A DNA stretch of 32,000 nucleotides from Candidatus Thorarchaeota archaeon (lineage in GTDB: Archaea; Asgardarchaeota; Heimdallarchaeia; Hodarchaeales; Hodarchaeaceae). Of the stretch, positions 10,631 to 32,000 are shown piece after piece. Location: contig JBHLRO010000016.1 in the NCBI GenBank assembly GCA_048882505.1, positions 1-32,000 on the forward strand, written 5' to 3'. Positions within the stretch are counted from its first letter, which is position 1; every line of letters starts with the position of its first letter. Below the pieces are notes generated by a model. That model was not told the DNA's origin, searched no databases, and was given only the letters and a program-made list of their open reading frames with translations. The position numbers and the translations under genes were made by a program.

Positions 10631-10712
10631 TGGGCACGGTCGGATTTGAACCGACGATTTCTGGACACCCTGCTTTCTGCGGGGGTGACACCAGGTTTCC
10701 TCTTTTTTCCAG
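10631..10712 (-). pseudogene. tRNA 3' part / tRNA-like element of unresolved identity (possibly Pro-like); no complementary 5' acceptor strand nearby
   Basis: Perfect T-arm GTCGG-TTCAAAT-CCGAC, acceptor 3' strand CGTGCCC plus A73, upstream TCCAG complementary to CTGGA at 10712-10708, and an intron-like hairpin with a CCTG/CAGG helix. No GGGCACG-like strand within about 250 nt upstream or 130 nt downstream. Confidence 0.6.
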
Positions 10713-10812
10713 AACTTCATCATGAGGTCAGTAAACCTAGTGGAGTTCATAGGAGGTGATATAGAACTACGAGCTGAATTGAAGTGAACTTCGAGATGAT
10801 ATATGGAATATG

Positions 10813-10883: not shown

Positions 10884-10911
10884 GTATTGTAATTTTTCTT
10901 TCTTGAGAACG

Positions 10912-12574: not shown

Positions 12575-13860
12575 GAAGAGAGGGGTCATTGGAATTTCAA
12601 GTCTTTAGCTCCGTTTCTTTCCAACCAGGTTTTTGGTACCATTCTTTTACTGTGAGGATACGAAGTGCTGAAACAGGTGCACGTATTTCGGACAGAACGT
12701 ATTTGGATCAAACCCCATCCAATGTTACGTAAATTATGTCATCTTTCCAAAAACGTATTTAATGAGGCCAATTATTTCATCCGTCAAATATATTTTGCAA
12801 CGGGCACCTGGATAAAGTCAGGGGAATTCCAGGATCACTTAGAAGCCTCTATCAATTTTCAAACGCTACCACGATCTACTGCTCTCAAAATTCTCTCCAT
12901 TGTTGAGGCTACTTGGAAATCATTTTTTGCAGCGTCAAGAGATTGGAAAGTACACCCTGAGAAATATTATCGACAACCGCGTCCACCCAAATACAAACGA
13001 AAAGACGGTGAATTTCTACTGTGGTTCTCTAAAGTCCAACTTTCAATTACAGATGGGCGCCTCCACATCCCGTCTCTGCCCCATCTTCAACTTCAACTAC
13101 GACTAACATCCTTCCAATCTGTCCTCGGCATTCGAATTGTTCCCCAAGGTGTAGGTTATGTGGTCGAGATTCTCTATAAGAAAAAGGTACCTGCTACGTC
13201 TACGAGTGCTCCAAAACGGATTGTAGGGATTGATTTAGGCTTGGTCAACCTCATAACTCTGGTCAACAATATTGGACAAAAACCAATTGCTGTTAAAGGT
13301 GGGGTAGCGAAGTCGATCAATCAATTCTACAATAAGGAACGGGCGCATTTACAGGGTATCTATTCACGACAAGGGATCACCACGGGTACCAAACTCTTCC
13401 GACTCAATTCTAAGCGAAAACGAAAATTTAACCACTATTTTCACGAGGTCAGCCGCTTTATAGTTGATTGGTGTAAGGCCCATCACATTGATACCCTCAT
13501 TATAGGTCGGAACAAACACTGGAAACAAGGAATTCATTTGGGTAAAAAAACCACGCAGAATTTCATCTTTATCCCCTTTCAGGAACTTATCAAGAAGATA
13601 CACTACAAGGCCACCGCTGTTGGAATTCGGGTATGGTATACGGATGAATCGTACACTAGCAAGTGCAGTTTCTTAGATGCAGAACCTATTGCACGGCAGC
13701 AAGAATATCTAGGAGCCCGTGTCACAAGGGGACTGTTTCAATCCCAGAATGGCACAATCATCAATAGTGATGTGAATGGGGGCTATAACATTGTGAAAAA
13801 AGCAGTCCCGAATGCGTTTGCAGACGGGATAGAGGGTGTGTGGTTACACCCGATCAGATG
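12575..13860 (+). mobile_element. Non-autonomous IS200/IS605-type (IS1341-like) element; ends approximate
   Basis: Solo tnpB with no tnpA nearby; hairpins TCCCG-AATGCGTTTGCAGA-CGGGA (13806-13829) and GGGTGT-GTGGTT-ACACCC (13834-13851) at the 3' end. The left boundary is only a guess (after TTTAA at 12570-12574). Confidence 0.5.
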
Positions 13861-13909
13861 GAGAGCCAAGGAGCAACCTGGCTTATTAATTGCTGATAAA
13901 AGTGGATGA
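12665..13909 (+). CDS. tnpB: TnpB RNA-guided endonuclease (IS200/IS605 OrfB) with rearranged RuvC-II and no Zn finger
   Basis: LCHLSKNVFNEANY N-terminal helix; GIDLG (RuvC-I); IIGRNKHWKQ lacking Glu; DESYTSKCS; NSDVNGGYNI (RuvC-III). Confidence 0.92.
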   Translation: MLKQVHVFRTERIWIKPHPMLRKLCHLSKNVFNEANYFIRQIYFATGTWIKSGEFQDHLEASINFQTLPRSTALKILSIVEATWKSFFAASRDWKVHPEKYYRQPRPPKYKRKDGEFLLWFSKVQLSITDGRLHIPSLPHLQLQLRLTSFQSVLGIRIVPQGVGYVVEILYKKKVPATSTSAPKRIVGIDLGLVNLITLVNNIGQKPIAVKGGVAKSINQFYNKERAHLQGIYSRQGITTGTKLFRLNSKRKRKFNHYFHEVSRFIVDWCKAHHIDTLIIGRNKHWKQGIHLGKKTTQNFIFIPFQELIKKIHYKATAVGIRVWYTDESYTSKCSFLDAEPIARQQEYLGARVTRGLFQSQNGTIINSDVNGGYNIVKKAVPNAFADGIEGVWLHPIRWRAKEQPGLLIADKSG

Positions 13910-14226: not shown

Positions 14227-16458
14227 ATGACTCTTAAAAACACCGATATTTCGGATCACTTGATACTTGAAGGGAACCTTCCTCGGCAGGAGCCCCCTGA
14301 AACGGATTACTCCGCCCACTCTTATGTTGATTTGCTAGATAAATATGCCGCCGCCGCGATGAAGGGCTTTCTTCAGACTCAACGTCCTTTAATCGAGTTA
14401 GAACAACTACTACGATCAGGACACCAGTTTTTCATCCTTACGGGAGGCACGGCGCGCGGGAAAACGCGGGCGGCCCTCCTCTATCTCCTACACGAGACCT
14501 GGAAACACCAGACGTATGGATTAGCCATTGTCCGCAGTCGCTCCGACGGCGAGGAACTCCGGAAAAAATGTGCTAAATACCTAAAGTTGCTGGACGATCC
14601 ACGACGGGTTGTGACCTATTACGGGGGTCGAGATCAGGACGAGAAAAATCAGAAATTGCGTAAGGAAATCAAACAGAAATTGAAGGGGAAACCCCGAATT
14701 GCTCTATTGATCACCACACTCTTTAAATATGACCAGTCGTTAACTGCTCACTCTGAACTGGGAGCATCAGCTCATACCAAGTACCTCGAGAAACTGGCAT
14801 CTCCTGGGGACTGGGGAGAAACCTTTGCAAGTGCCGGAGTGAGCTGGTTTAAGAAATTAGCCAGTCCTGCTTTCGTGTTTCTGGACGAAATTGATTCTTA
14901 CCCCCTTCATATGATTTATTGTTTAGCTATGATTGTTCGGATGATCCGCTGGCAGGACACGGAAACCCGAGTTATCCTCTCCTCCGCCACCCTTAGTAAT
15001 CCCGAAGATTTGGCGGAGATGTTTTTTGGACAGAATGCCGCTTTTCTCCATCTATCTGGGACGGGACGGCGTGGCCCCACTCAAGTCAAGGTTTATTATG
15101 AGAAGAACCCCCAAGAACTGCTATGGGAGCGATGTGGGGCCATTCATACCTATATTGGCGCCGAACTCAAAGAAATCAAACCTGGTAAACGCCACATCCC
15201 CCGAAAAATCATTCTCTTCATCAATAATAAACGCGACATTGATACTCATCGGATTATTGGCACATTCACCGATAATTTCGTCACGGTTCACGGTGACATG
15301 CCTACCGAACTCATAGCGCAGAATCTCAAAGAATTTCGCGAAAAAGCCCTGAAAATCTGTTTAGTGGCAACCAATATTGCTCAATCCGCCCTGAACGTCT
15401 CGAATGTATTTTGGGTGGTGGGGTATGGTGTCCCCAATGATGTGCGACAGTATCGCCAGCAACGCGGGCGCGGCAGCCGCAACCCTGACCAACCAGGGTA
15501 CCTCGATATTATTCTCCGCGCCACCCATACCCATGAGGTGGAACTGGCAAATCCACAGAAATTGGACGCCTGTCGCACGTTCATTCTTGGTGATACGCCC
15601 ACCCCCTTGAAGATTCCCCGTTTTACCTCTGTGGGGTTAAAGTATGGTATCATAATCGGGCTCGTGTTTGGGTTTTGGGATGTCCGAGCTCGGTTGAAGA
15701 AAGAGCTGGCCAGCAACGGGAATTTCGAGGTTATACAGGCCTTGGGCCAAGCTTATTTGGATTTGCTCCTAGCTGGGAAAGTTACGGTGGGATCTGAGGA
15801 GCGGATCAGGCCTACCCCTTACACCAGACACTGGGTGTATAATTTTCCAGATCAATTTAGCACTGAACCTTACACCGTAGCTCTGAGACAAAAAGATGGG
15901 ACAGAAAAAAAGCTAGGCACGATCAGCCTCTTGCATCTCCTCCGATCGGGCCTCCCCTCGCAGATATTCCCCTATATCAATGAAAATCTGAAGATAATCT
16001 CCATCATCCCGTGGGAACGAAAAGTAATTGTTGAGCGGGCTTTTCAACCTCTCGAGTATTATCACAACCAGGTTGAAACTACTCTCGAGATAACCAAAAC
16101 CGTGGCCTATCATCCTGAAGCTGAGATCGGGTTGGTGGAGGTTTTAGAGCGCCATCAGGTGACATTTTTAGGAGTTGATAAGCGTTCGAGGGCTGAACTC
16201 GAGCCTTATTATCCTTTTCAGGCATTAGCGGCAGATCAAGATTTCAAGGCGATTTTTCTTCCCAAACGAATCACTCTCCCCGTTGTCAACCAGATGAACC
16301 AGCTATATGACCATCTGAATCTTGATCATGGCTCTTTCAGGCAAGTACGATGTCGACATGAAAAATATGGAGCTGGAACGATATTCACTGACACCACACA
16401 CCTGGGGTTGGCGGAGATGATGTATGAACAGTGGTTGGTTTTGGAGGAGGAGTTTTAA
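14227..16458 (+). CDS. SF2 DExD/H helicase, YprA/Hrq1/SftH-like, with truncated DUF1998-like C-terminus
   Basis: GTARGKT (I), FLDEIDSY (II), SSATLSNP (III), HGDM, VATN (V), QRGRGSR (VI); C-terminal TIFTDTTHLGLAEMMYEQW without the terminal Cys cluster. Confidence 0.8.
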   Translation: MTLKNTDISDHLILEGNLPRQEPPETDYSAHSYVDLLDKYAAAAMKGFLQTQRPLIELEQLLRSGHQFFILTGGTARGKTRAALLYLLHETWKHQTYGLAIVRSRSDGEELRKKCAKYLKLLDDPRRVVTYYGGRDQDEKNQKLRKEIKQKLKGKPRIALLITTLFKYDQSLTAHSELGASAHTKYLEKLASPGDWGETFASAGVSWFKKLASPAFVFLDEIDSYPLHMIYCLAMIVRMIRWQDTETRVILSSATLSNPEDLAEMFFGQNAAFLHLSGTGRRGPTQVKVYYEKNPQELLWERCGAIHTYIGAELKEIKPGKRHIPRKIILFINNKRDIDTHRIIGTFTDNFVTVHGDMPTELIAQNLKEFREKALKICLVATNIAQSALNVSNVFWVVGYGVPNDVRQYRQQRGRGSRNPDQPGYLDIILRATHTHEVELANPQKLDACRTFILGDTPTPLKIPRFTSVGLKYGIIIGLVFGFWDVRARLKKELASNGNFEVIQALGQAYLDLLLAGKVTVGSEERIRPTPYTRHWVYNFPDQFSTEPYTVALRQKDGTEKKLGTISLLHLLRSGLPSQIFPYINENLKIISIIPWERKVIVERAFQPLEYYHNQVETTLEITKTVAYHPEAEIGLVEVLERHQVTFLGVDKRSRAELEPYYPFQALAADQDFKAIFLPKRITLPVVNQMNQLYDHLNLDHGSFRQVRCRHEKYGAGTIFTDTTHLGLAEMMYEQWLVLEEEF

Positions 16459-16461
16459 GGC

Positions 16462-17223
16462 ATGAGCGATCGATTGGCCCGCTACCTTCGGGATTATTTG
16501 TATTCGATTGCATTCTTGGCCGATCTGCATCTGGATGGCACTCCCATCCGTATCCGAGGCCAGAAGGTAGATTTTCGAGAGTTTTGTTATTTCCTCCTCA
16601 CTCCCCTCACGCAGGCTTCCCTCATCGTTTTCCTTGGGGATACAATTGAAGGCATTGGGGAAAAAAAGGATTATCCTAAAGCGCGGGCGCAACTGTTCAT
16701 CCTATATGAAGTGCTAGAGGATTTGGAGCGACTACAGCGTTCGATCTTTGTTCTGGGCAACCATGACCACGATGACCGCTATTTTACCTGGCGACATCCA
16801 ATTCGGATCCATTCAGAACTCATTCTCCCCCTTCTCCCGTACCAAAATCTCATCATCATCCATGGCCATAATACAGGCCTTGAAAAATTCGAGGAGAAGG
16901 CCCAGCTTACCAAGGAGGACATGACTAGCTGGCGTGGAAAATTAAGATACAACGCCCTTGAGGATAATACGACACGCAAAAAAGTGGGCATCAAAGACAT
17001 TGTGGTGGCAGGACACACCCATAGACTGGCGGGATGGTGTGATCGGACTCGTGACAACTCACTGGGTGTCCCCCCCGTACGCAAATTTTGGGAGACCACT
17101 CCACAGAGTAAGCAGGGATGGGTAGGGTTCTTTGGGTTTGGGACGTACGATGAACCCAGCGAGTCTTTAATCGCCATTGAAAACCCTACCAGCCCTGAGG
17201 CCTTCCAGGCTCTCTTGGACTAG
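16462..17223 (+). CDS. Calcineurin-like metallophosphoesterase
   Basis: ADLH, GD, GNHD, HGH and GHTH motifs all present; starts 3 nt after the helicase stop. Confidence 0.9.
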   Translation: MSDRLARYLRDYLYSIAFLADLHLDGTPIRIRGQKVDFREFCYFLLTPLTQASLIVFLGDTIEGIGEKKDYPKARAQLFILYEVLEDLERLQRSIFVLGNHDHDDRYFTWRHPIRIHSELILPLLPYQNLIIIHGHNTGLEKFEEKAQLTKEDMTSWRGKLRYNALEDNTTRKKVGIKDIVVAGHTHRLAGWCDRTRDNSLGVPPVRKFWETTPQSKQGWVGFFGFGTYDEPSESLIAIENPTSPEAFQALLD

Positions 17224-18252: not shown

Positions 18253-21099
18253 TCATTCATTAAACCTTAAACCTCTAAGGATATCTTCTTTAGCCCAATG
18301 CAATAATGGAATTATAGTCATAACTAAATGACAAGCAAACATGAGTATTAGTAATACTATAGATCTGGTCATAGGACCTAGGGTGAAAATATTGTTATAC
18401 ATATTGAGTTCGGGAGACATGGATTCAATATAAACTCCCAACGTAAAAAGACCTGATATTAACCCAACACCAACACCAAATAGTTCAATCAACATGAAAT
18501 ATCCTATATTTAATTTCATGATTGATTTGATCGACATTCCCCGAGAGCGATTAATGGAAATTTTTTGTCTTTCTCTATGTAAGATTGAAACATAAAACCA
18601 AGAAATTCCAAAAGATCCTAGTATGATTGTGAAAAATATTAAAACGTTAAAAATCTCAGAAATTTTCCCTTCAAATGAGTTCTGGTGGTCAGTAAGAGCA
18701 TCTTCAAGTATCTCGATTTGTAAGAAGGGGAAGTTATTCTTGAGAATATGGAAAAATTCTTTCCTGTCCTGAATTGTCATATTTTGGTTTAATCGAATTA
18801 GAAATGCGGTTTCTAAGTCATTGATACTACTAGTTTGATTGTTAATATAATCAAAATCACTTATGATCTTCTGAAACCGAAATTGACTTTCTTTGAATCC
18901 AAGACCAGGTAAAACGTCATAGAATCCTTCGACTGAGAATCTTATCGTTTCTTGAGTAATACCAGTTGATAGGGAAATTTCTCGGACTTCACCAGTATTC
19001 CAATGGTATTTTTCAAGAAATTCAAGTGGAACAATAATATTATTATTGCTTACAAGATTAATGAGATCTCCTGATGTTTTCTTGATTGAATATGCAATAT
19101 CACCAAACTTAATTGTACCTAAGTAATCTGTCGGTGATTTTAATGCAATTATTATGATGGGAACTGTTCCAAGAGAACCTGCGAAGAAGGATCCATGTTT
19201 AAAAAGGAAAAGACAAGAATTATCAATACTTTGAGAATTAATGTCTATAAAATCTTGAAACGCATCTGTTTCAAATTGATAGTATAAACCTGTAAGACGA
19301 ATATCTGCACCTATGTCTCTAACGATATACTTTTCTGATAATTCCTCATTTGTTGTCGAAATAAATACTAATGCAATAGATGAAGTAGTTATTAGACTAA
19401 CTAAAAATGCTAGTCCCAATGTTTGTCTTCCTCGCCGCCAGAAATTTCTAAATAAATGAACAGTTAGATCATTTAGAAAGAAGGCAAAAAATGGAGAGAA
19501 TAATCTCTCAATTCTCCTCTGATAATGATAAATTAACCCAAGTAATCCTATACTCAGGAAAAATGGAATAAATAGAAAAAAAACTGATAGAATCTTTTGA
19601 AGATTCATAAGAAGTAAACTCCAAACTCCACCAATTTCAAATATCGTCAAGAAAGCTAATACAAATCGTGAAAACACTAATAATAGAGGAAGAAGAAAGA
19701 AAAAACGCCAATAAGGAAAAAATTTCATTGTTAGATGGCTTTGTTCAGTCTGCAATATTAAATCCTTTATTGGTGTTTCGATTACTGGATAGACCAGCCC
19801 TTGTCCAAATAGGCCAATCATAAGCCCAATTAAACAATTGGTACTTATTATAATTTGAAAATCATTATAAAAATTCGAAAGTAAGAGATAGAAATTGATA
19901 TGGATAATAAACTGATTGATGGCCAGGAATGAACCTATCACCAACAGATTCGCTATTAGTCCTCCTATAAAACCCTCTATCGCTCCTTCAATTAAATAAG
20001 TGGTCAGAATGGATCGATTCCCTAACCCACGCAGTTTTAACATCCCCAGAAGTGGTCTTTCATTTCGATATCTCTGATGAAGGAAAAGAAAATACAAAAA
20101 TAATAACAGAAACATCAAGGCAAGTCCAAATAGGAGGAATATAAATGAAAGATCTGAGATTTTTGAATGAATATTTGTAATTCTGGCTCCTAAGTCACTA
20201 GACCAAATGATTTCTGCATTTAATGGTTTTATGGACTCTACTTTTTTCCAAAGATCATTATTTAAATATACATAGCGATCAATGATGGTAGTTATATTTC
20301 TTCTGTCCACAAGATGAAAATGGTCAACAACCACTGAAATGATCCCGTTGTTAACAATGGTATTAATGGAGACGGTTTGAAAGCTGGTGATCATGAAGCT
20401 AATATAGGTGTCAAGCGCCAAGATTGCGAAATCAACAAATCCTGGGTTTTTTCCTGGCTGTGTAGCGGAAAGCTTTGTAATTTCTAAGAACGCATCATCA
20501 GAAGGGACTAAATTCCAAATATCTCTAATTGTTAATTTGTAAGATGTTTGGGAGGTACTATCATTTGGCGATTCATAATGAAGAAAAAGAGAGTCTCCGA
20601 TAGTTAAATTTAATCTGGTTGCAGTAGTGCTTGAAATTATCGTTTCATCTTTATCTAATCCAATCAATCTAGAATAATCTATAGTAACATCATTCAAATA
20701 GTTGAAATACTCATAATTCAAACCAGAAACACCGATCGGAAGAACGTTGAAACCTGATCTATCTAATATGGTATCCCTACTCAATAGGAAGAGGCCAGGA
20801 AAAACTTCTGGATTGGGAACTAATTTGACAAATACTTTCTCAACGTAAGAAGTAGTGGCAAGACCATTTACAATCTCGGTAATGTTAGTGATGGGGCTAT
20901 CTCTATTTATTATTCTTAAATTAAAATCAATTGATATGGAATCAAGATCATCTGAAACCATACTTAATTGAACAGTACTAATGCCGGTGGTTAAACCCAC
21001 TATAATTGATGAAATAAAAGCAACAAGCAATACAATCATGATTGTTATGCTTTGGCGCCTTTTCATTCTCAGAAAAGCCATTTGCAATCCAAAAAGCAT
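18253..21099 (-). CDS. FtsX/MacB-like ABC permease (two FtsX-like domains)
   Basis: Multiple TM segments; GMLKLRG and NRSRGMS FtsX-type motifs; RDIGADIRL linker; large extracytoplasmic domains. Confidence 0.85.
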   Translation of the reverse strand: MLFGLQMAFLRMKRRQSITIMIVLLVAFISSIIVGLTTGISTVQLSMVSDDLDSISIDFNLRIINRDSPITNITEIVNGLATTSYVEKVFVKLVPNPEVFPGLFLLSRDTILDRSGFNVLPIGVSGLNYEYFNYLNDVTIDYSRLIGLDKDETIISSTTATRLNLTIGDSLFLHYESPNDSTSQTSYKLTIRDIWNLVPSDDAFLEITKLSATQPGKNPGFVDFAILALDTYISFMITSFQTVSINTIVNNGIISVVVDHFHLVDRRNITTIIDRYVYLNNDLWKKVESIKPLNAEIIWSSDLGARITNIHSKISDLSFIFLLFGLALMFLLLFLYFLFLHQRYRNERPLLGMLKLRGLGNRSILTTYLIEGAIEGFIGGLIANLLVIGSFLAINQFIIHINFYLLLSNFYNDFQIIISTNCLIGLMIGLFGQGLVYPVIETPIKDLILQTEQSHLTMKFFPYWRFFFLLPLLLVFSRFVLAFLTIFEIGGVWSLLLMNLQKILSVFFLFIPFFLSIGLLGLIYHYQRRIERLFSPFFAFFLNDLTVHLFRNFWRRGRQTLGLAFLVSLITTSSIALVFISTTNEELSEKYIVRDIGADIRLTGLYYQFETDAFQDFIDINSQSIDNSCLFLFKHGSFFAGSLGTVPIIIIALKSPTDYLGTIKFGDIAYSIKKTSGDLINLVSNNNIIVPLEFLEKYHWNTGEVREISLSTGITQETIRFSVEGFYDVLPGLGFKESQFRFQKIISDFDYINNQTSSINDLETAFLIRLNQNMTIQDRKEFFHILKNNFPFLQIEILEDALTDHQNSFEGKISEIFNVLIFFTIILGSFGISWFYVSILHRERQKISINRSRGMSIKSIMKLNIGYFMLIELFGVGVGLISGLFTLGVYIESMSPELNMYNNIFTLGPMTRSIVLLILMFACHLVMTIIPLLHWAKEDILRGLRFNE

Positions 21100-21116
21100 G
21101 ATTTTCCCGTTTTTTG

Positions 21117-24080
21117 TTAATCTCTAATATGGAGGTAATCGATAATCCTAGATCTGGTGTTCCAATAGTTTTGTACAAAAATACTTATGAAGTAAGTCAC
21201 TGTAAGAATCAATAAGAAACCGCCAATCTTCGACCACGGAAAAAACAAGGTCACTGGAATTATAGGCCAAGGTCTAATAAGCACGTCTTTGTAAACAAAT
21301 GCAGATGTTAGACCAAGCAATATCCCGAAAAAAGCTCCTAGGCTGTTGATGGAGAGCATTTCCACAAGAAATATGTTACGTATATCTCTTAAACTCAATC
21401 CTCGTGCTCGATAAATTGCTACCTCCGTTCTTCTTTCATGATATGTTTGAAAAAATGTTAAACTCAGTCCAAATAATGCCAAAACAAGAATTATAAAGAA
21501 AAAGGAATCCATGAGTATAATGATACTCCCCGATGCTGTGAATAAGTATGAAGAGAGGGTCTTATCCAAGGAGATTACTTCAAAGTCTTTAAATTCAGCA
21601 GTAATACTGTGATACAAATCTGTACGGATTGTTTGATTTGCTTCGGGATTGATTTTGATGAACCATGTCATTTGAGAATCAGGAGGGATATCCATTACGG
21701 ATTCTATATATTCAATTGAAACAATAAGTGATTTCGGAGGGGTAAAATTTTGTTGAGTGAACCCTGGGATAAGGTAATAGAAACCTGCGACTGTATAGTT
21801 AATCAATAATGTCTCCCCATTTGTAGAATCCAACTGAACAGGTAAAACAGAACCAATATCATGGTGAATATAGTCACTTTGGTCTATTTCAAGATTAGTA
21901 AATTCAATTGGTGCTAATGCTGTTGGGCTCTCTGAACTTAATTGGACAAATAACCAATTTGGTTCGGCTTCAGGTATGAAATAATCTTCAAAGAATGTAC
22001 TTGCTACATAATTTTCGGGTTGAATTGCTACAATCCCCGCTGGGTAGATAAAAGCGTACCCACGGTAGGAGCCATTATTTTCATAAGAATAATCTGCAGC
22101 AATAATATCACCGTCAATCCAGATCATCGGTGTACTTTCTTCAATATAGGATGAAAGATTATAAAGCAATGAAGGAGTAATATTCTTCATCTGTTCATAA
22201 GTGCTGGATATTCTAATATCAGATCCAATATCTCTTTTTATCTCCCGAATTGAAACATCTTGAGCCGATTGGGACAACATTATAGGGGTAATACCCATTC
22301 CAAAGGCTAATGCGGTTATCAATGCTAATTTGGAAAAATGTTTTGGTCTTCTCAGATAATTGTACCTCATAATCTCTTTACCACTTTCATTAATAAAATA
22401 TGAAAAAATCTGCATATATTTAGAAAAAATCTTTCTATTTTTGGTGACAATCAAGGTTAATAATAAAACCAAAAGGATTGGGAGGAATAATAAAGCTGCT
22501 GACATAATGTCCTTTGTTACAATGATAAACCCACTAAAAATTCCAGAAATGTCAGTAAGATTAATGATTTCAAGAATAATGAAACTGAGCGAAATGAATA
22601 GAAGAGGAATAATGACAATAGAGAGACTCTTTTGTTGATCTTCATACCATTGCTCCATGTTCGAAGATTGCATCTGAACAGCATCAATAGGAGTAGTCTT
22701 GATGATTCTCCGTGAAATGAAATAATTTATCCCTACTCCCAAAAACAATCCCAAAAAAGTCGCATTTACAATAAAAGAAGGAAGTTGTGAGATATAAATT
22801 GTTACCCAGCGAAGAATGTCCATTTCATTGGGAATGACATTATACAAAGCTAGAACAAAGATCAAACACGTAACAACGCTGGCTAGGGAGGCTACTCCCG
22901 CAATTAATGTTCCTTCAATCAAAAAAGACAATCTAATTTCTCTCTTGCCCAATCCTCGACAAAGTAAAATTCCGTATTCCCTGATTTGGTGACTAATTAG
23001 GATAGAGCGTAGAAACAGTGTTATGAGGAAAACAAGGATAATGATTGGTACTGAAATAGCCAATAATGTGCTTTGTAGGTTTTTTATATCAGCTTGATTC
23101 TTATCTAATTCTTTTACCAATAGATTTTCTGCAAAAAATACCGTCCCAGTAGGTAAATTTTCCCTGAAATTCTGAATTATTTCCTTTTCGATGGAATTTA
23201 GTAGAAGAGGAGATTTTTTCTGATTATATTCCGTAATTATTTGATCTCGGTTAAAGAAAATTGAAATGATCAATCGACTTAATAATTCCTTAACATAAAC
23301 CCCAGGAAGAGACTCCATAATGTATACTAAGGTTTCTGACTCTAAAATCACGAGTTCGTCTAAAACACCCTCATAATTATTGATAAATGGATTTCTTAAG
23401 AGATCTTTAGCAATATTACTTTTTGATGGGATGTAAACAATGTTCTTGATAATGAGGGGAAATGATTTGTTAAATAATGATTGATCTAATGCCCATGAAA
23501 AAGGATGGTTTATATAGTGTAAATAAATTGTGTCATTTATTTTTACATTCAATTTTTGGGCCAAATAGTGAGAAATAATTGTCTCATTTGTCTTCAACTG
23601 AACAGGGTTTTCCTTCTCAAATCTGAGGCCTAATAAGTTTGAATACTCCAAGAAATTCTGACTATCATACCCTACAAGATCAAGACGTTCTCCACCTTGA
23701 AACCTAAAATCAGAAGTTAACACCTGACTTGTATTAACCGTTAAATGGTGAATCAGATTTCCAGTTCCCAAATACCCTTTTATATGATACTTTATAACCG
23801 TTTTATTTGTATAGGGAGATTTTTCTGCTTCAACCGATAGATTATACAAGTTAGGGCGAAATTCGTCATTTGGAAGAGAAACTCCGAGATTTAAATCTGT
23901 AAAAACATCATCAATATCACGAAGTAAGATAGAGGATTGTAAAAAAGTAGTTCCATATGCAGTTCCAAACATAAAGGTGATAGAAAACAACATTGTAAGA
24001 AACATACTTAGAGTGTTCGATTTATTTCTCGTCAAGCGGCCCAAGCTTAATTTTAAGGCTATAATTTCAGAATTGGGCAT
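21117..24080 (-). CDS. FtsX/MacB-like ABC permease (two FtsX-like domains)
   Basis: EYGILLCRG and EVAIYRARG motifs, RDIGSDIRI linker; paralogous to 18253-21099. Confidence 0.87.
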   Translation of the reverse strand: MPNSEIIALKLSLGRLTRNKSNTLSMFLTMLFSITFMFGTAYGTTFLQSSILLRDIDDVFTDLNLGVSLPNDEFRPNLYNLSVEAEKSPYTNKTVIKYHIKGYLGTGNLIHHLTVNTSQVLTSDFRFQGGERLDLVGYDSQNFLEYSNLLGLRFEKENPVQLKTNETIISHYLAQKLNVKINDTIYLHYINHPFSWALDQSLFNKSFPLIIKNIVYIPSKSNIAKDLLRNPFINNYEGVLDELVILESETLVYIMESLPGVYVKELLSRLIISIFFNRDQIITEYNQKKSPLLLNSIEKEIIQNFRENLPTGTVFFAENLLVKELDKNQADIKNLQSTLLAISVPIIILVFLITLFLRSILISHQIREYGILLCRGLGKREIRLSFLIEGTLIAGVASLASVVTCLIFVLALYNVIPNEMDILRWVTIYISQLPSFIVNATFLGLFLGVGINYFISRRIIKTTPIDAVQMQSSNMEQWYEDQQKSLSIVIIPLLFISLSFIILEIINLTDISGIFSGFIIVTKDIMSAALLFLPILLVLLLTLIVTKNRKIFSKYMQIFSYFINESGKEIMRYNYLRRPKHFSKLALITALAFGMGITPIMLSQSAQDVSIREIKRDIGSDIRISSTYEQMKNITPSLLYNLSSYIEESTPMIWIDGDIIAADYSYENNGSYRGYAFIYPAGIVAIQPENYVASTFFEDYFIPEAEPNWLFVQLSSESPTALAPIEFTNLEIDQSDYIHHDIGSVLPVQLDSTNGETLLINYTVAGFYYLIPGFTQQNFTPPKSLIVSIEYIESVMDIPPDSQMTWFIKINPEANQTIRTDLYHSITAEFKDFEVISLDKTLSSYLFTASGSIIILMDSFFFIILVLALFGLSLTFFQTYHERRTEVAIYRARGLSLRDIRNIFLVEMLSINSLGAFFGILLGLTSAFVYKDVLIRPWPIIPVTLFFPWSKIGGFLLILTVTYFISIFVQNYWNTRSRIIDYLHIRD

Positions 24081-24622: not shown

Positions 24623-25183
24623 TTAGATGACTATTGTAGAAGTTACAGTTGCGTATCTAGTACCTACTAAGTATATATACACTTTTATCTTCGAATTTAA
24701 TTCAACTGTAATTCCGCCCGAGCCAGAATAACTGACCCAATCATTAGGTGTATCATCACGAGTGCCGCTTACCAAATAAGGATTTGAAACGGAGCCTGTC
24801 CAATCAGAATACCAACCATAGGTTCTAGAGTTTAATCCTACACGAAGTGTGTAACGGTTCCGAACATAATTTAATGTATGAATCCAAGGGGGGAAAAATT
24901 GGGTATTTTGTGCCACCCAATTAAACTTAATTCTGGTGATACGAGCGCGTACAATATCAAAGTCACCACTATATTCAACTTCAACTTTAACATATGAAGA
25001 GTAATCAGTCCCATGGTAAATATAATTAACTCCATAACTTGCATGATTAGGTGGGATGTCTTTTGTGTAAATGTAATACCAGGCGTTAACCCGAGCTATT
25101 GATGGTAACAATACTAATGCAAACAGTAGGGCTGAAAATAAAAGTTTTCGGTGAGTTCTCAAATTTCCATTCATTTTGAACAT
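24623..25183 (-). CDS. Secreted beta-rich, aromatic-rich protein (signal peptide, predicted cleavage VNA|W)
   Basis: Basic n-region (RTHRK), hydrophobic h-region, AxA-like site; AGGAGGT RBS upstream. Confidence 0.8.
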   Translation of the reverse strand: MFKMNGNLRTHRKLLFSALLFALVLLPSIARVNAWYYIYTKDIPPNHASYGVNYIYHGTDYSSYVKVEVEYSGDFDIVRARITRIKFNWVAQNTQFFPPWIHTLNYVRNRYTLRVGLNSRTYGWYSDWTGSVSNPYLVSGTRDDTPNDWVSYSGSGGITVELNSKIKVYIYLVGTRYATVTSTIVI

Positions 25184-25365: not shown

Positions 25366-25689
25366 TCATAGCAATCCTCTTTCATATGCTTTACATTTTA
25401 CTAATGGGGTTAATTGTGTTACATCTGGGAAAAGTGAGTAGAGTTTTCCCACCTGGTGATCCGTATTTAGACATGTAATGATTTGTTGTGTTTTTAGTGC
25501 CTTTAATGTCCTACAAATAGATGTTAAATGGATTGATTTCCCCTTAGCAAGATCAATTTGAACATCTCGAGCTGTTTTAATACCTTCAGACAATGAGATG
25601 AATACTTTAATGCGATTTACCCCACCTAAGATGAATGCTAATTTCTTGAGGAGTTTCTCATCTTTGATGAATGTACAATTCACCCACAT
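25366..25689 (-). CDS. Winged-helix (ArsR/MarR-like) transcriptional regulator
   Basis: NRIKVFISL...KTARDV...SICRTLKALKTQQII...GKLYSL wHTH pattern. Start is ATG 25689 or GTG 25683 after GGTGA. Confidence 0.8.
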   Translation of the reverse strand: MWVNCTFIKDEKLLKKLAFILGGVNRIKVFISLSEGIKTARDVQIDLAKGKSIHLTSICRTLKALKTQQIITCLNTDHQVGKLYSLFPDVTQLTPLVKCKAYERGLL

Positions 25690-26346: not shown

Positions 26347-29298
26347 TTAGAGCGTATTTTCAAGGTTGGAAAAATCAGGACGATAAATAAGGGGATTGTA
26401 TGTCTTTCGAAGGAATTTAGTTCGATCCATAGCATCACTGTAGTCTAAACTCTGTACCAAGCATGAACAGAGATGGTTAACATGGTATTTGTGTGCCTCA
26501 CTAAATGGCATCCACTGGTGGTTGTACCACAGCTTCCAGGGAAAAAGCTCCTTTTTGAGAAGATCTCTTCGGAGCCTTCGCAGTAAGTTTTCAGATGGAA
26601 CATAATAGGGGAGATAATTGTCATCATAGCGGACTTGAAACTCATAAGGCTGAATATTTCCCTGGGCAACCGCCTTACATAAGACAAGGCGGGACAGGAT
26701 TCGTCCCACCTCTTCCAAATCTAAATGTCCTGCTCGACCTGGGTTATCTGGGGTGGTATGGACAAACAAAGGGATGGTATAGAACCCTAATCCCTGTTTG
26801 GCATTCCAAATCCGAAGGCGATACCGCATGCTGCGATGGAGACTGGTCAGGGCTGCGTCATAGGCCGTATAGGCGCCCATAAAATCTAACCCGCGTTTTT
26901 CTTGTTTTTTGACGAGACGGGCAACCAACCGCCCATAAGGCCGCTGGATCAAGGAGGAAGTAGAGCCCCTGACTTGATGAGTCATTCGACGAATACCCTC
27001 CGCAAATGGACGGGAAAACCAGGCCTCAAATTGGGAAACGAAACGAAAACTTTGGTTTTTTAGGGGTTTGACCAGTTCTATTGTCAATCTATCCTCCAGG
27101 GTCGCCAATTTGGACGGACACAGGGGAAGCAGCCGATTCATCCACCTCAAATATCTGCGGCCTAGCTGTTCAACCCCAAACCTGATGGCCAGGCCTGCCA
27201 GATACCAGACCGCATTCATCTGGGAGATCAAGAGACCTTGGATATGTAGAGTGGTGAGGACTTGTCTCACTCCCCTTTGATCAACAGCGGCTTTGATCTC
27301 GTTCATTGGGGAGGAGGAAATTCCCTTTGTCGAAATATTCACTACACGTATCCCCCAGCGTTCGAGAGATTTACTAAGTCGCGGTTTTCCGACATTGTAC
27401 ACCGATTGGAGCTGGTGTAGGGGGTAAGTCTCGGGGTTTTTTTTACGGGGACGCTTGACAGAGAGGACCAAGCAGCGACCATAGGTTTGGATGTGGGCCT
27501 TGTCTCGTGGGGAAATTGTAATGTCAAATTGGCGATAATTGAATTTTACATTAGGATAACTGGCGGCCAGGTCTTCTAACCACCCGTTCCACTGTTCGGT
27601 ATCTATCAGGGTCACATCCCGACCCTTATACGGTTTTTGGTCAACAACTAAGGATCCCTTCTCATACCAAACGTCGGCCTTTTCGGAAATAACTACAACT
27701 CCTGGGGTTCGTTTAAGTATCCAAGACGGGGGATCGATGGTCGGATCATACACCTGCCCTAGAGGTAAAGAGAACTCAGGTTTGAAATGCAGGTCTTGTG
27801 TAGTTTCAATGCCGATCCAGCCTAAATCGTGAAGTAAGGCGGCTGTATTGGCTAAATGGAACCCATAAACGCCTATCTGTGCCAATAATCCAGTGAGAAA
27901 TGAGTACTGACTACTACATCTACAGACGACTGGCCTACCTTTGGTTGGGAGGTTAGGTAGAGGGGAGTGACAACGAATACAAACTGGAGTGGGAACCTGC
28001 GGAAGAACTAAAAAGACGGGGTGTGACGCTTGTGGGGACCAAAAGGGACAAGCTGGTTTCCGTGCGAAAATGGGTTTGACTCGTTCCGTAAATAGGGATT
28101 CTATATGATCGGGAATGGTAGTATACCCGAATTTCTGTAGATATTCTAATTTTTTGAAGAGCAGGCAGTCACATTTCGTGTATGTGGACCAATACTGGCA
28201 ACTACTGCAGGTCTGACGTAATAACTGGGCTTGACGAGCGAATCGAGAATAATAATTGTGGCAAGTCAGTTTAATGCTTAATACACGCCGTTTTTTCCGC
28301 CCTCGATACTTTTGAATAAAATCTACACGGAGATTGGCTTGGAGAAATTTAATAGTTTTGCGAGCGCTCCACTGAACCTTCGGAAGGCTTCGTAGGATAT
28401 CAGTGTCGTCAAGGAATTTCTGTTCTCGAGTGGTAAAACGGCACTTCATGATCCAGGTCACGGTACGGGTGTACTGGGAGACCTGGATGGATCCCTGGTT
28501 GGGATCGCCAGGGACTCGCAGACTTGACTGGCTAGCTGCCTCTAGAATGTCAAAATAGGGCCGCTCAAAACTTCCTGCCTGTCGGTCTAACGTCTCCAAG
28601 GGAACCAGCCAAAAATAAAGATCAGACAAGACTTTAGCCAACACCTCCCCTCGTCTGATTGATCGCGGTTCAGGGATCCGAAAAGACTTGAAACTCGGGA
28701 CTTGGATCAATCGATCTTCGCGTGGGCGCTGTCGTAACGGTCGTCCGAGATGACGTCGGATGTATTCTTCCTTGCGAGATTGATCGATAATGGGGCGGAC
28801 TTCATTTATGAGGGCGTCTTTGGTATCAGCTGAGTCAAATCCATGACAAATTGCCTCCAAAAAGACCTCCAAATGGGAGTTTGGGGTCGAGCTGCTCTGA
28901 CGATACCACTCGCTCACGGCCACCAACACCTGCTTAAGGGTTGAATCTGAAATCTGGTGGGTAGGAGGGCGTTCTAACAAGGGGGTAAGTGTGGGGTCAT
29001 CATAAAATATCTGAATGTATGAAACACAATTGAGGTCATAGGCCAACAGATATTGGCCGAGAACAGAGGTCTGATAGTACTTCCGTTTTAGTAGGCCTGT
29101 CAACTGAGCTAAAAGGATCAGTTCCTCCGTCAGAGGGGTATCGCTTGGAAACTTGCTTGGGGATACTGAAAGGGAAGCTATGAAGTCATCGCGTGTTTGC
29201 ATCCGATGCCCGCATTCTAAGATTGTACGGAGTTTACCTTCAACACCTTGATTGGGAGGTGAATCCTGAAAACGTATTAAATGTCGTTGTTTGGTCAA
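26347..29298 (-). CDS. cas1: Large, highly diverged Cas1-family integrase (Asgard aCas1-like) with N-terminal extension and Cys-rich region
   Basis: YPLHQLQSVYNVG...WGIRVVNISTKG (Cas1 beta domain); FEAWFSRPF (E758); YDAALTSLH...GLGFY...FVH (H847); DLEEVGR (E863); C-terminal YNPL. TTG start at 29298 (ATG at 29202 is an alternative). Confidence 0.82.
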   Translation of the reverse strand: MTKQRHLIRFQDSPPNQGVEGKLRTILECGHRMQTRDDFIASLSVSPSKFPSDTPLTEELILLAQLTGLLKRKYYQTSVLGQYLLAYDLNCVSYIQIFYDDPTLTPLLERPPTHQISDSTLKQVLVAVSEWYRQSSSTPNSHLEVFLEAICHGFDSADTKDALINEVRPIIDQSRKEEYIRRHLGRPLRQRPREDRLIQVPSFKSFRIPEPRSIRRGEVLAKVLSDLYFWLVPLETLDRQAGSFERPYFDILEAASQSSLRVPGDPNQGSIQVSQYTRTVTWIMKCRFTTREQKFLDDTDILRSLPKVQWSARKTIKFLQANLRVDFIQKYRGRKKRRVLSIKLTCHNYYSRFARQAQLLRQTCSSCQYWSTYTKCDCLLFKKLEYLQKFGYTTIPDHIESLFTERVKPIFARKPACPFWSPQASHPVFLVLPQVPTPVCIRCHSPLPNLPTKGRPVVCRCSSQYSFLTGLLAQIGVYGFHLANTAALLHDLGWIGIETTQDLHFKPEFSLPLGQVYDPTIDPPSWILKRTPGVVVISEKADVWYEKGSLVVDQKPYKGRDVTLIDTEQWNGWLEDLAASYPNVKFNYRQFDITISPRDKAHIQTYGRCLVLSVKRPRKKNPETYPLHQLQSVYNVGKPRLSKSLERWGIRVVNISTKGISSSPMNEIKAAVDQRGVRQVLTTLHIQGLLISQMNAVWYLAGLAIRFGVEQLGRRYLRWMNRLLPLCPSKLATLEDRLTIELVKPLKNQSFRFVSQFEAWFSRPFAEGIRRMTHQVRGSTSSLIQRPYGRLVARLVKKQEKRGLDFMGAYTAYDAALTSLHRSMRYRLRIWNAKQGLGFYTIPLFVHTTPDNPGRAGHLDLEEVGRILSRLVLCKAVAQGNIQPYEFQVRYDDNYLPYYVPSENLLRRLRRDLLKKELFPWKLWYNHQWMPFSEAHKYHVNHLCSCLVQSLDYSDAMDRTKFLRKTYNPLIYRPDFSNLENTL

Positions 29299-29334
29299 TA
29301 ATAGTTATTCCAGCGCTTTTTTTATCCTTTAAAC

Positions 29335-29356
29335 AGTTATATACTAATATATAACT
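29335..29356. promoter_or_regulatory. 9-4-9 inverted repeat forming back-to-back TATA-like boxes in the divergent promoter
   Basis: AGTTATATA-CTAA-TATATAACT in the 82-bp gap between the cas1-like gene and the nuclease ORF. Confidence 0.55.
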
Positions 29357-29380
29357 AGAAATACATGGAAGTAAATTTAT

Positions 29381-32000
29381 ATGAAGATAAAACACCGATT
29401 TTTAAATTTTGATAAAAATATTCCTGTAATCCAATCTTCTAAGACTTGGCAGGAGGTACATCTCACTCGTCTGTTTGAAGCGATAGGTATTCCGTTTGAA
29501 AATCAGCGATTATTCGAAGTAAGTTTAGCTAATGGAAAAACACAGCGATATGTTGTGGATTTTTGGTTATCACCAGGGGTGGTCTTGGAGTGTGCAACTA
29601 CTCAGATGCAAAAACATTACGTGCCTCTCCGAAAGAAATCACTAGAACTCGAGGTCAAAAGTGGACATCTCAAGAGACATGATCCCGATTTGGTAGTATG
29701 GGTTCTCCTAGAAAGTCAACAATCGATTTCTAATGCATTCTTTCTCAAATTACGTACATTGATGCCCTCTGTGGATCAATTATTCGTCTCCCGTCACACT
29801 CTGCGATTGGCAATAGAAGAAGGTCTACGTTGCCCCGCAGCGGGAAGTTTCTATCAATGTGTATTTGACCAAGCGATATGTGAGTACCTGAACCAGAATC
29901 TAGAAGTAACTGAACTAGATTTTCCAGATGATCAGATCCGACATTTTACTTGGTTGTGTAGTCACATTTACAGCAGATGGGCAATCAATCATAGAGCGAA
30001 GAAAGCCTTGGATGTCTATCTGCCAGAGAATGGGATAAAAAAGAGAAAAAGAAAGAACCCAATTTTTAAGAAAGATACACCCACCAAATCAAATAGCGTA
30101 AAGGATCTGATAAATCCCCCTCGTCAGAGAAAAAGGTTGGGAAGATTATCAATTGAAGATATTTATTCTGAACTTGAAAATTCTGGAAGATTCTCGGAGA
30201 AGGTCCTCAGAAAGATCATGGATTTACTGTTTAAATACAGGTCACATTACGTAAAAAACCAACCCGTATTTTGGGACAAAGTTTTCAAATCTCTAAGAAG
30301 TCTTGGTCAACGCACAGAGATTTTGAATATTGAGAGGGACGAAATCGTTGAACTAAGGGCAATAGCTAATGAATTAAGGAAGTTTACAAGTCAATTTTCT
30401 AAGCAGACTTGCGATAGAGATGAAATATCTATACAGACAGCTCGTCTTTTCTACGATTTTATTGATGGAAAAATCTCTCTTTTCAGTAGAATATTCAAGT
30501 CTGGATCATTATCAGATGAACATCAAGAATCAATGTATAGAGCACTTTGCGCAGAATTAACAGGAAATAAACCAGACAGTATGGTTACAAGGATATTAAA
30601 GGATAGATATGAATCTACTCTTCTGATAAGAGAAGGAATTACAATAATCCGTACCCACAAATTCTGTGATACGAAGACTCATCTAGGAATTGTAAGTGAG
30701 GTTTTGGATTTAGATGCAAATTATCCCGTCATTTCTGATGATTATGTTCCCCTAAGTAACACGATCCTAAGTCTCGACATTGCCGATTTAAACAGGCTAA
30801 TCACTCACATTGGTAAAATTGATTATCTGAAAAGTTTTACTTTACACGTAATAGACGAAACAGGGAATTTTAGTTCATCCACATTGCCTGAGAAATTTAT
30901 TGGTAAAATAACCAAACATCTAGGTAAATTGACGGGCTTAAAAGATGAAGAATTATATCAGTGGTTTATCGACCTTTTTGCGGATGAAAGAACTTTTTAT
31001 TTTGATAACTTCGGTGATGCTAATTGGTTTAGGCAAGCTAGAAAATCGAATGAGTTATTAAGGCTCTATACGCAGCTTTATGAGACATTTGTAAAATTTC
31101 ATTACACTGAAACACCAAATAACGATCAAATCTTGATTAAGAAGGTCAGGAATACACTTAATAGATTCTTTGAAAATGCCGAGTCATTCAAACTATTTTC
31201 CTCCAATACCAAAACTCTAAGAGGTATATCTAATGATTACTGGCTTAACTGCCTTAAATCCATCAGCCAAGATGAACTGGGATATATCCTTCATTTTGAT
31301 TTTAAGGAGTTGCAGGAAAGAACTTCTTTAGAGCAAGTAAGGAACGGAAAAAGGGGATTTTTCAACAGATTAAGGTACAAACACACCACACGTAGTGAAA
31401 TTTATCCCGATCAATGGGAGGGTGTCATTTATGATAATATGGGGAAATTGGTAGGTGAATCATACCATAAATCCCAAAAATATGACTTTCGGATAAGAAA
31501 AGAAATCAGGTTCTGGAATAACACATTTCGAGAGAAGATCCTAAATGACCTCAAAAACATGGCTAGAATTAATTTCAAAAGATTTCCACGTTATCTTGAT
31601 AAAAACACGGAATTTGGGAGGTATTTAGTAAACATTTGGCTGGAGGCCGGATATCTAAGACCTGCAGAGTATCTGGAATCTCTCGTTACTCCACAGAATA
31701 ATCCTTTAAACTTATTAAAGGAAAAAAGGGTCAAATTTCGGGTAATTAAAGCTGAAAACATCCTTCTCAATGATTACGTTCTTAAGAATCCTTCATTTGA
31801 GTTAAACCAGTTTGTCCAGAGTTTTAACAATGACTATTTAATCAAGAAGAGTATTCAGAGTGATAGCATTGTCGAAGAAGTTATTGAAAAAGGGCTTCCA
31901 TATAAGTACTTGAGTGCGAGTACAAAAAGGCAAGTTCCAATTCCTAGACTATCGAAACGCCACGGAATTGCCTATGCAAATATCTTTAACGAAACCGAAA
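29381..32000 (+). CDS. Large protein (>873 aa, 3'-truncated by the window) with N-terminal PD-(D/E)xK / DUF559-Vsr-like nuclease domain; not in the ORF track
   Basis: Manual translation from ATG 29381 (MKIKHRFLNF...) has no stop through 32000. Motif QE25VHL...GIPFENQ...YVVD60FWL...VLE70C; KKRKRK linker at 30038-30055. Confidence 0.85.
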   Translation, partial: MKIKHRFLNFDKNIPVIQSSKTWQEVHLTRLFEAIGIPFENQRLFEVSLANGKTQRYVVDFWLSPGVVLECATTQMQKHYVPLRKKSLELEVKSGHLKRHDPDLVVWVLLESQQSISNAFFLKLRTLMPSVDQLFVSRHTLRLAIEEGLRCPAAGSFYQCVFDQAICEYLNQNLEVTELDFPDDQIRHFTWLCSHIYSRWAINHRAKKALDVYLPENGIKKRKRKNPIFKKDTPTKSNSVKDLINPPRQRKRLGRLSIEDIYSELENSGRFSEKVLRKIMDLLFKYRSHYVKNQPVFWDKVFKSLRSLGQRTEILNIERDEIVELRAIANELRKFTSQFSKQTCDRDEISIQTARLFYDFIDGKISLFSRIFKSGSLSDEHQESMYRALCAELTGNKPDSMVTRILKDRYESTLLIREGITIIRTHKFCDTKTHLGIVSEVLDLDANYPVISDDYVPLSNTILSLDIADLNRLITHIGKIDYLKSFTLHVIDETGNFSSSTLPEKFIGKITKHLGKLTGLKDEELYQWFIDLFADERTFYFDNFGDANWFRQARKSNELLRLYTQLYETFVKFHYTETPNNDQILIKKVRNTLNRFFENAESFKLFSSNTKTLRGISNDYWLNCLKSISQDELGYILHFDFKELQERTSLEQVRNGKRGFFNRLRYKHTTRSEIYPDQWEGVIYDNMGKLVGESYHKSQKYDFRIRKEIRFWNNTFREKILNDLKNMARINFKRFPRYLDKNTEFGRYLVNIWLEAGYLRPAEYLESLVTPQNNPLNLLKEKRVKFRVIKAENILLNDYVLKNPSFELNQFVQSFNNDYLIKKSIQSDSIVEEVIEKGLPYKYLSASTKRQVPIPRLSKRHGIAYANIFNETE

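Follow-up and report, generated by a model that had tools for sequence, protein, structure and literature searches.

We analysed the first 32,000 nucleotides (hereafter, the window) of contig JBHLRO010000016.1 (C16), which belongs to a 4.3-Mb, 94.6% complete assembly of a Heimdall-group Asgard archaeon (genome G000) whose nearest named relative is Candidatus Heimdallarchaeota B3_Heim. The window encodes a giant Cas1-family protein of 983 amino acids (aa; P0001) and, divergent from it, a partner protein (P0016) with a predicted N-terminal nuclease domain. Judged from gene content, this Cas1 system matches a RAMP-less variant of an ARAMP-type cassette, a kind of system known from genome analysis, and what appears to be new here is the replacement of the RAMP genes by a protein of ~850 aa that is fused to the nuclease. 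An earlier note on this DNA had proposed a novel, Cas1-driven mobile element or defence system. Beyond that first reading, the analysis revealed a well-delimited island in a tRNA-Trp gene and a candidate tRNA-site integration family fused to the Cas1-associated nuclease; at another locus (L004), this family is represented by a separate 845-aa protein (P0017). As the window ends inside the partner gene, contig sequence beyond position 32000 was taken in to complete this gene and its surroundings. The features are compiled in Table 1.

The giant Cas1-family protein and its partner

The assignment of the 983-aa protein to the Cas1 family, already made in the earlier note, holds because profile-profile comparison, structural matches of an AlphaFold2 (AF2) model to the Protein Data Bank (PDB), and invariant metal-site residues agree. 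Scans of the protein against Pfam, NCBIfam, and PADLOC returned zero matches, and neither single-sequence nor profile searches of its whole length against PDB sequences gave anything relevant. The gathering score of Pfam family PF01867 was not reached, as P0001 had no match and a distant relative (P0051) obtained 17.2 bits against a cut-off of 22.3. Comparison by hhalign with a profile of 21 canonical Asgard Cas1 proteins resulted in a probability of 97.9% (E value of 5.8e-13) over 329 columns, covering positions 27 to 373 of the 386-column profile and both Cas1 domains. The AF2 model of residues 540 to 983 had a predicted local distance difference test (pLDDT) score of 90.4, and its top 50 PDB matches in Foldseek were all Cas1 or casposase chains (4n06, 6opm, 7kfu, and 8d3p among them), with E values down to 6e-10; one of these Cas1-fold chains had been deposited as an uncharacterized protein of A. 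aeolicus. Model and profile alignment both contain the two-domain Cas1 fold, composed of an N-terminal beta domain and a C-terminal alpha-helical domain. The 983-aa protein is a genuine member of the Cas1 family.

Conservation of the active site was inspected in an alignment of the C-terminal 444 residues with 34 homologues (35 sequences, with identities down to 18%). E758, H847, and D860 were invariant across these sequences, E863 and H858 were nearly invariant, and the hhalign alignment placed E758, H847, D860, and E863 in the metal-site columns of Asgard Cas1 (Glu, His, and Asp/Glu). The three putative metal ligands proposed previously (E758, H847, and E863) were thus found to be conserved and their codon coordinates to be correct, and D860 joins them as a fourth, conserved acidic residue. 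Judging from these residues, the giant Cas1 is probably catalytically competent.

The two-domain Cas1 core occupies residues ~586 to 983. It is preceded by an N-terminal region (residues 1 to ~540) that contains eight invariant cysteines (364, 367, 378, 417, 440, 443, 459, and 461), and a structure-atlas search with the N-terminal half of the protein gave no usable match. Between the two, AF2 places an additional small subdomain rich in beta structure (residues ~540 to 585; window 27546-27681, minus strand) ahead of the N-terminal beta domain of Cas1. The family is small and belongs to Asgard archaea: a word search of 5.8 billion proteins retrieved 13 full-length relatives, and a profile search, run exhaustively against 1.84 billion representatives, gave 41 matches. 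The giant-Cas1 profile also matched Asgard open reading frames (ORFs) of 1,325 to 1,367 aa whose Cas1 domain passes the Pfam Cas_Cas1 cut-off (G041:C5:121094-122176, G041:C4:341861-342907, and G058:C9:5105-6127), and these ORFs bridge canonical Cas1 and the giant family. Pfam scans of the longer family members (1,224 to 1,473 aa) revealed no informative fusions.

The giant Cas1 and partner genes are arranged head to head across a spacer of 82 bp, as the earlier note had described. Upstream of the nuclease gene, this spacer contains the motif TCCA(A/G)CGCTTTT followed by a TTTAAA/TTTATATA box, and both elements are kept in the window as well as in all 7 related loci aligned. The partner ORF (29381-31999, plus strand), for which more than 873 aa had been noted, is open at the window end; its stop lies at contig position 32692, resulting in a full length of 1104 aa. 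Partner residues 11 to 141 are homologous, at 38 to 46% identity, to a free-standing protein of 146 to 203 aa encoded at five other loci (the product of gene A, see below), and E25, D60, E70, K86, E91, and K93 are invariant in this domain. The whole partner had zero matches in Pfam, NCBIfam, and PADLOC.

In the AF2 model of the 1104-aa partner, only residues 20 to 148 were predicted with confidence (pLDDT of 80 to 93). Their topology, alpha-beta-beta-beta-alpha-beta(-alpha), is that of a restriction-endonuclease-like core, which agrees with the nuclease domain claimed earlier. Fold matches in the PDB included BbvCI, XisH (TM scores of 0.52 to 0.55), PspGI, AF1548, Cas4 SSO0001, Bax1, and RecE, with probabilities of up to 1.0 and E values of at least 4e-3, the latter being weak since the query was the whole 1104-aa model. 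The acidic pair of the PD-(D/E)xK motif, D60 and E70, is invariant, and the lysine is off its canonical +2 position, with the invariant K86 in the next helix instead. A weak Vsr match and structure-atlas neighbours in the PD-(D/E)xK clan add to this evidence, and residues 20 to 148 are accordingly modelled as a restriction-endonuclease-fold, Vsr/DUF559-like nuclease domain. The remainder of the protein is of a different kind, as residues 256 to 1100 match P0017 at 34% identity.

Gene neighbourhood of the giant Cas1 family

The canonical layout of the family was derived from the loci of B3_Heim (L006), of two related metagenome-assembled genomes (L027 and L028), and of L029 and L031. In this layout, the giant Cas1 gene faces an operon of genes A, B (~240 aa), C (~280 to 299 aa), and D (~280 aa). 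Gene A was the first gene divergent from giant Cas1 in every related locus examined, so that the conservation check on the gene pair that had been suggested earlier came out positively. Gene C encodes a RAMP protein, as shown by a Pfam RAMPs score of 23 bits (cut-off of 22.1) and a PADLOC match to Csm3 (1.2e-5). This gene adjoins giant-Cas1 homologues in L006, L027, L029, L031, and on contig C24 of the window's own genome, and the close homologues of the giant Cas1, at 41 to 42% identity (including CEE45_06915 of B3_Heim), adjoin such a Cas7/Csm3-like RAMP gene. A superfamily 2 (SF2) helicase and a calcineurin-like phosphoesterase, either fused or in succession, are found a few kilobases from giant Cas1, with variable genes in between. 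This helicase-phosphoesterase, often one fused gene, was linked to giant Cas1 in L004, L006, L027, L029, L031, and genomes of the genus, and within the genus the helicase co-occurs with giant Cas1.

The locus in the window departs from this layout. Genes B, C, and D are missing, and gene A is fused to the P0017-like protein. L004 contains the same combination in unfused form, namely, helicase-phosphoesterase, Cas1, A, B, and P0017. A second, canonical cassette is present in the window's own genome. It comprises a Cas1 of 39% identity together with genes A, C (the RAMP gene), and D and has no gene B, and its parts are located at the ends of two contigs (C24:1-4404 and C82:1-2699; L071 and L033), with the helicase on C82. 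The same genome also encodes a canonical Cas1 on contig C55. In agreement with the earlier note, no CRISPR array, cas2, cas4, or PolB was detected in the window, nor in the next 14 kb of the contig. Giant Cas1 was present in 22 of 400 Asgard genomes and in 6 of the 21 genomes of the genus, and it occupied different loci in sister genomes; the locus is therefore patchy and not fixed at one place.

ARAMP array-less systems were reportedly recognised by Makarova et al. in 2020 (CRISPR J 3:156) through genome analysis. They are described as array-less, type III-derived systems of Asgard archaea with PD-(D/E)xK or HNH nucleases, most of which include "a distinct form of Cas1" (PMC8730458; PMC12669027). 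The window locus agrees with this wording in its diverged, distinct Cas1, its PD-(D/E)xK-type nuclease, and its lack of an array, and it has no diverged Cas7/Cas5 RAMP genes beside Cas1. We suggest an ARAMP-type system because the context of the family consists of a small nuclease, a Cas7-like RAMP, a ~280-aa gene, and helicase-phosphoesterase. Given that this family context matches the ARAMP array-less systems of the two articles cited, the novelty that had been claimed for the Cas1 system as such was not sustained.

The persistence of giant Cas1, the small nuclease, and helicase-phosphoesterase in the window without the RAMP effector defines a functional core to test. To our knowledge, array-less Asgard Cas1 systems are known from genome analysis only.

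Two further observations were made around the helicase. Unannotated genes of 466 to 519 aa recur in its vicinity (L006:15323-16723 and 20103-21509; L071:5821-7377; L004:582-2138); the two copies of B3_Heim are 66%-identical paralogues that flank the helicase, and the C24 copy shares 22% identity with that of L004. In the related loci, the variable slot between helicase-phosphoesterase and Cas1 harbours an S8 peptidase, KAP and NERD NTPases, a GIY-YIG protein, and PycTM.

The tRNA-Trp island and the ~850-aa protein family

The island is bordered by an imperfect direct repeat of 124 to 126 nt with 94% identity between its copies. The right copy forms the 3' part of a complete, three-intron tRNA-Trp gene (contig 32765-32962, minus strand), the four exons of which splice to a 74-nt sequence that ARAGORN called as tRNA-Trp(CCA). 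Unspliced multi-intron tRNA genes are missed by ARAGORN alone and also by Rfam, a scan of which found no known RNA in the window. As the repeat begins within the intron at position 37/38, 4 or 5 bases from its start, the junction falls at the anticodon loop. The copies differ at seven positions, each of them in an intron, and the left copy carries the base of the relatives at all 3 informative sites. Because the repeat is long, imperfect, and derived from the tRNA, and because its left copy has the bases of the relatives, the sequences indicate that the island entered tRNA-Trp by site-specific attP x attB recombination and not by target-site duplication (TSD). In tblastn comparisons, the site was empty in three genomes of the same genus in which no giant Cas1 was found (G112, G116, and G119); there, the genes at 6.9 to 10.9 kb of the window adjoin those at 33.2 to 44 kb of the contig.

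The earlier proposal that this locus belongs to a mobile element is hence upheld in that it lies in an integrated island with an empty site in three sisters. The part that made Cas1 the mobility gene was not supported, considering a mobile insertion of the ~850-aa protein family in genome G120, which gave no giant Cas1 match (see below). Neither was the proposed Tn7-like, Cas1-driven cut-and-paste mechanism: an inverted-repeat search of the island revealed no significant terminal inverted repeats (TIRs), and its borders are 124-nt attL/attR-type repeats of tRNA-Trp instead of a short target-site duplication.

An extra 5' fragment of tRNA-Trp is present at contig 33067-33140, 105 nt upstream of the full gene. 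It stops at the anticodon loop, which is also the island junction, and its D-loop intron differs. A further recombination event at the site probably left this fragment behind.

From left to right, the island contains an ATPase, TnpB, the helicase, the phosphoesterase, an ABC exporter, two small ORFs, giant Cas1, and the nuclease fusion. Along the island, GC content is mosaic: the helicase, phosphoesterase, and Cas1 genes are at 0.47 to 0.50, and the ABC exporter and the 850-aa moiety are at 0.33 to 0.37 (genome, 0.41). A scan of the island ORFs detected no polymerase, no cas2-like ORF, and no DDE transposase; TnpB, which is RuvC-like, was the only such enzyme found.

The P0017-like family comprises 3 full-length and 2 truncated members (Table 1). 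Its best-conserved block corresponds to partner residues 925 to 1104 and shows a PD940-G, E954, E958, K964 pattern. Searches of this block against PDB sequences and Pfam gave nothing, those of the C-terminal part of the partner against the structure atlas gave low scores only, and hhalign comparisons of the 850-aa moiety with genes B, C, and D showed no relation. In the window, L004, G120, and G105, the P0017-like genes are convergent with the 3' end of a tRNA gene at a distance of 30 to 92 nt. The solo gene in G120 constitutes a 3.04-kb insertion between tRNA-Pro and ftsZ, whose edges repeat 19 nt of the tRNA 3' end without a mismatch. At the corresponding PAN-tRNA-Pro-ftsZ site, the window's own genome has no insertion. 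The giant Cas1 profile had no match in G120, which is 93% complete.

In the tRNAs beside P0017-like genes, the T-loop is interrupted by an insert (L004:12560-12745, L082:6550-6800, and L083:1525-1620). The end of this insert is alike in three unrelated loci, reading about TTTTCATTAAAA on the gene strand and adjoining the 3' half of the acceptor. The shared insert could be an att core borne by the element instead of an ordinary intron. G105 (L078 286-376) has an upstream 5' copy of its tRNA that is comparable to the tRNA-Trp fragment of the window.

Table 1. Features of the window and its island, and members of the P0017-like family (window positions unless marked as contig)
Feature	Location	Strand	Basis or context
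Left att repeat, displaced 3' part of tRNA-Trp, 124 nt	10631..10754	-	94% identity to contig 32765-32888
Island body, ~22 kb (to contig 32764)	10755..32000	.	Repeat borders and empty sites
AAA_14/DUF4143 ATPase	10903-12423		Island
TnpB (OrfB_IS605 and Cas12f1-like TNB)	12665-13909	+	Island
SF2 helicase, 14227-16458 (743 aa), and calcineurin-like metallophosphoesterase, 16462-17223 (253 aa)	14227..17223	+	Homologues near giant Cas1 in related loci
ABC exporter: LolD/MacB-like ATPase and two FtsX-type permeases of ~950-990 aa	17408-24080	-	
Two small ORFs	24623-25183 and 25366-25689		Island
Giant Cas1-family protein, 983 aa, TTG start	26347..29298	-	ORF call, profile comparison, AF2/Foldseek
Cas1 active-site codons: E758, 27027-27025; H847, 26760-26758; D860, 26721-26719; E863, 26712-26710	26710..27027	-	Alignment and hhalign
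Divergent promoter region, 82 bp	29299..29380	.	Motif and box upstream of nuclease gene
Partner N-terminal domain (residues 1 to ~148), predicted Vsr/DUF559-like nuclease	29381..29824	+	Gene A homology, AF2, fold matches
Lys/Arg-rich linker (residues ~149-255)	29825..30145	+	No homologue, low-confidence model
~850-aa P0017-like moiety, start (continues to contig 32692)	30146..32000	+	P0017 homology
P0017-like copy, window			Beside tRNA-Trp
P0017-like copy, L004			Beside intron-rich tRNA
P0017-like copy, G120, gene alone			Beside tRNA-Pro(GGG)
P0017-like 241-aa remnant, G105			Beside intron-rich tRNA; read by eye
P0017-like 162-aa remnant, L083			Beside apparent tRNA 3' fragment; judged by eye

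Competing explanations and relation to known systems

Our explanation runs as follows. Giant Cas1, the gene A-type nuclease, and helicase-phosphoesterase, together with the RAMP gene and the ~280-aa gene, would make up an array-less ARAMP-type cassette of which the window carries a variant, and a mosaic island of 22 kb would have entered tRNA-Trp at the junction of anticodon loop and intron by att-type recombination. The 850-aa moiety would serve as the integration enzyme of this island, and Cas1, the nuclease, and helicase-phosphoesterase would be its cargo, that is, an array-less DNA-processing or defence module and not a transposase. We lean, if only slightly, towards accepting this explanation as a whole, in which an ARAMP-type variant is the cargo of an island moved by the 850-aa moiety. 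A gene that ends against a tRNA-proximal att site is in the classical position of an integrase. The 850-aa moiety, rather than Cas1, is probably the likeliest integration enzyme, because the family ends against a tRNA wherever the locus can be read and because it forms a solo mobile insertion in G120. More tentatively, and with greater doubt than confidence, we propose that the P0017-like proteins represent a new tRNA-gene-targeting integration family, different from tyrosine and serine recombinases and from DDE enzymes and possibly with a C-terminal PD-(D/E)xK-like site, which mobilises Heimdall-group islands and has become fused in the window to the Cas1-associated nuclease. The locus offers a clean, datable mobility event, with a filled site here, empty sites in three sisters, and a one-gene sister element in another genome, and it suggests that an uncharacterised protein family may act at tRNA sites as a new type of integrase. 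If this is true, the integration machinery of the island would be physically coupled to the giant-Cas1 module by fusion.

Several points speak against this explanation. The window locus is devoid of the RAMP genes that give ARAMP systems their name, the ARAMP assignment comes from two reviews, and a role in defence is a matter of deduction for every member of the family. Most of the 850-aa moiety was modelled by AF2 with a confidence of less than 50, and no catalytic family was assigned to it, as there was no match in Pfam, the PDB, or the structure atlas. The tRNA adjacency of its family, as read from sequence, comes from five loci. In the window and L004, moreover, the 850-aa gene fills the slot that RAMP genes occupy in canonical cassettes, and the protein could be an alternative effector instead of an integrase.

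This last point belongs to a rival explanation, in which a conventional tyrosine integrase, SSV-like or Xer-like and by now lost or operating in trans, inserted the island, and the 850-aa moiety took the place of the RAMP pair as an effector. Tyrosine recombinases classically leave such a footprint, a long att repeat derived from a tRNA with its crossover at the anticodon loop. The location of the 850-aa gene downstream of A in the window and of A and B in L004 fits such an effector, the extra 5' tRNA-Trp fragment suggests repeated events, and the make-up of the island is mosaic, a TnpB element included. However, a six-frame search of the whole genome with PF00589 gave no match on contig C16 at an E value of up to 1 and revealed one clear tyrosine recombinase in the genome. 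Furthermore, wherever the sequence downstream of an 850-aa family member can be read, the gene terminates next to a tRNA gene; one of these copies is a single-gene insertion with 19-nt repeats, and the truncated C-terminal remnants beside tRNAs resemble decayed integration genes. We consider this rival unlikely.

The model of the earlier note, a mobile element driven by Cas1 with giant Cas1 as the integrase and the PD-(D/E)xK partner as a TnsA-like end cutter, appears quite improbable to us. On a clearly bordered island of 22 kb, no integrase-family protein other than giant Cas1 can be recognised; the active-site residues of giant Cas1 are invariant, the nuclease gene always adjoins it, and the family is patchy, with different loci in sister genomes. 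Casposons target tRNA 3' ends, which counts for this model (see also PMC8464041). Against it, the 124-nt imperfect repeat, with the differences from relatives in the copy beside the island, is unlike a target duplication of 14 to 15 bp, and neither TIRs nor PolB were found on the island. The canonical loci L029 and L006 showed no convincing att-like or TSD-like repeats in the stretches available, whose contigs end soon. An insertion of the same tRNA-end type is present in G120, a genome that gave no giant Cas1 match, and the usual partners of giant Cas1 are RAMP effector genes, which indicates a CRISPR-derived system and not a transposon.

Very improbable, in our estimation, is a decaying ARAMP remnant in which the effector was deleted, gene A became fused to an unrelated neighbour, and no current function is left. 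Such decay would account for the missing RAMP genes and gene B, the TnpB and ABC exporter insertions that part the helicase from Cas1, the mosaic GC content, and the intact canonical copy elsewhere in the genome. Yet all four of the long ORFs, of 983, 1104, 743, and 253 aa, are intact; Cas1 and the nuclease domain have kept their catalytic residues, and the locus its promoter motif. The unfused Cas1, gene A, and 850-aa protein of L004 indicate that their association is no one-off accident.

The likeness to Tn7 TnsA/TnsB is one of idea only, namely, a restriction-fold nuclease paired with an integrase. The window differs from Tn7 in having neither a DDE transposase, a TnsC-like regulator in the expected arrangement, Tn7-type ends, nor a 5-bp duplication, and its nuclease is Vsr/DUF559-like. 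Compared with the Cas1 of CRISPR adaptation (PF01867; A. fulgidus Cas1, PDB 4n06), the giant Cas1 has the same two-domain fold and Glu/His/Asp-Glu metal site; it is, however, three times longer, with a ~540-aa N-terminal Cys-cluster region and an extra beta subdomain, stays below Pfam detection, and has no Cas2 or repeat array nearby. Casposons share with the window a Cas1-family enzyme without CRISPR and a location of the element beside a tRNA gene, and the casposase (PDB 6opm) is among the best fold matches, whereas the island has no PolB or TIRs and its repeat is att-like and 124 nt long, in contrast to a duplication of ~14 to 15 bp.

Further parallels are to tRNA-integrating islands and to ARAMP systems. 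As in the tRNA-integrating islands of archaea and bacteria, the insertion duplicates the 3' part of the tRNA gene and has its crossover at the anticodon loop, sisters show an empty site, and the tRNA-proximal att site adjoins the end of a large gene. In the window island, no tyrosine or serine recombinase is recognisable, and the gene in the integrase position comes from an uncharacterised family with a possible PD-(D/E)xK-like motif. With ARAMP systems, the window has in common the Asgard (Heimdall-group) host, a highly diverged Cas1, the lack of an array or cas2, and a nuclease of the PD-(D/E)xK family. It differs from them in that the RAMP genes are absent and a nuclease-fused protein of ~850 aa is present, the locus is split by an ABC exporter, and the whole is carried on a tRNA-integrated island.

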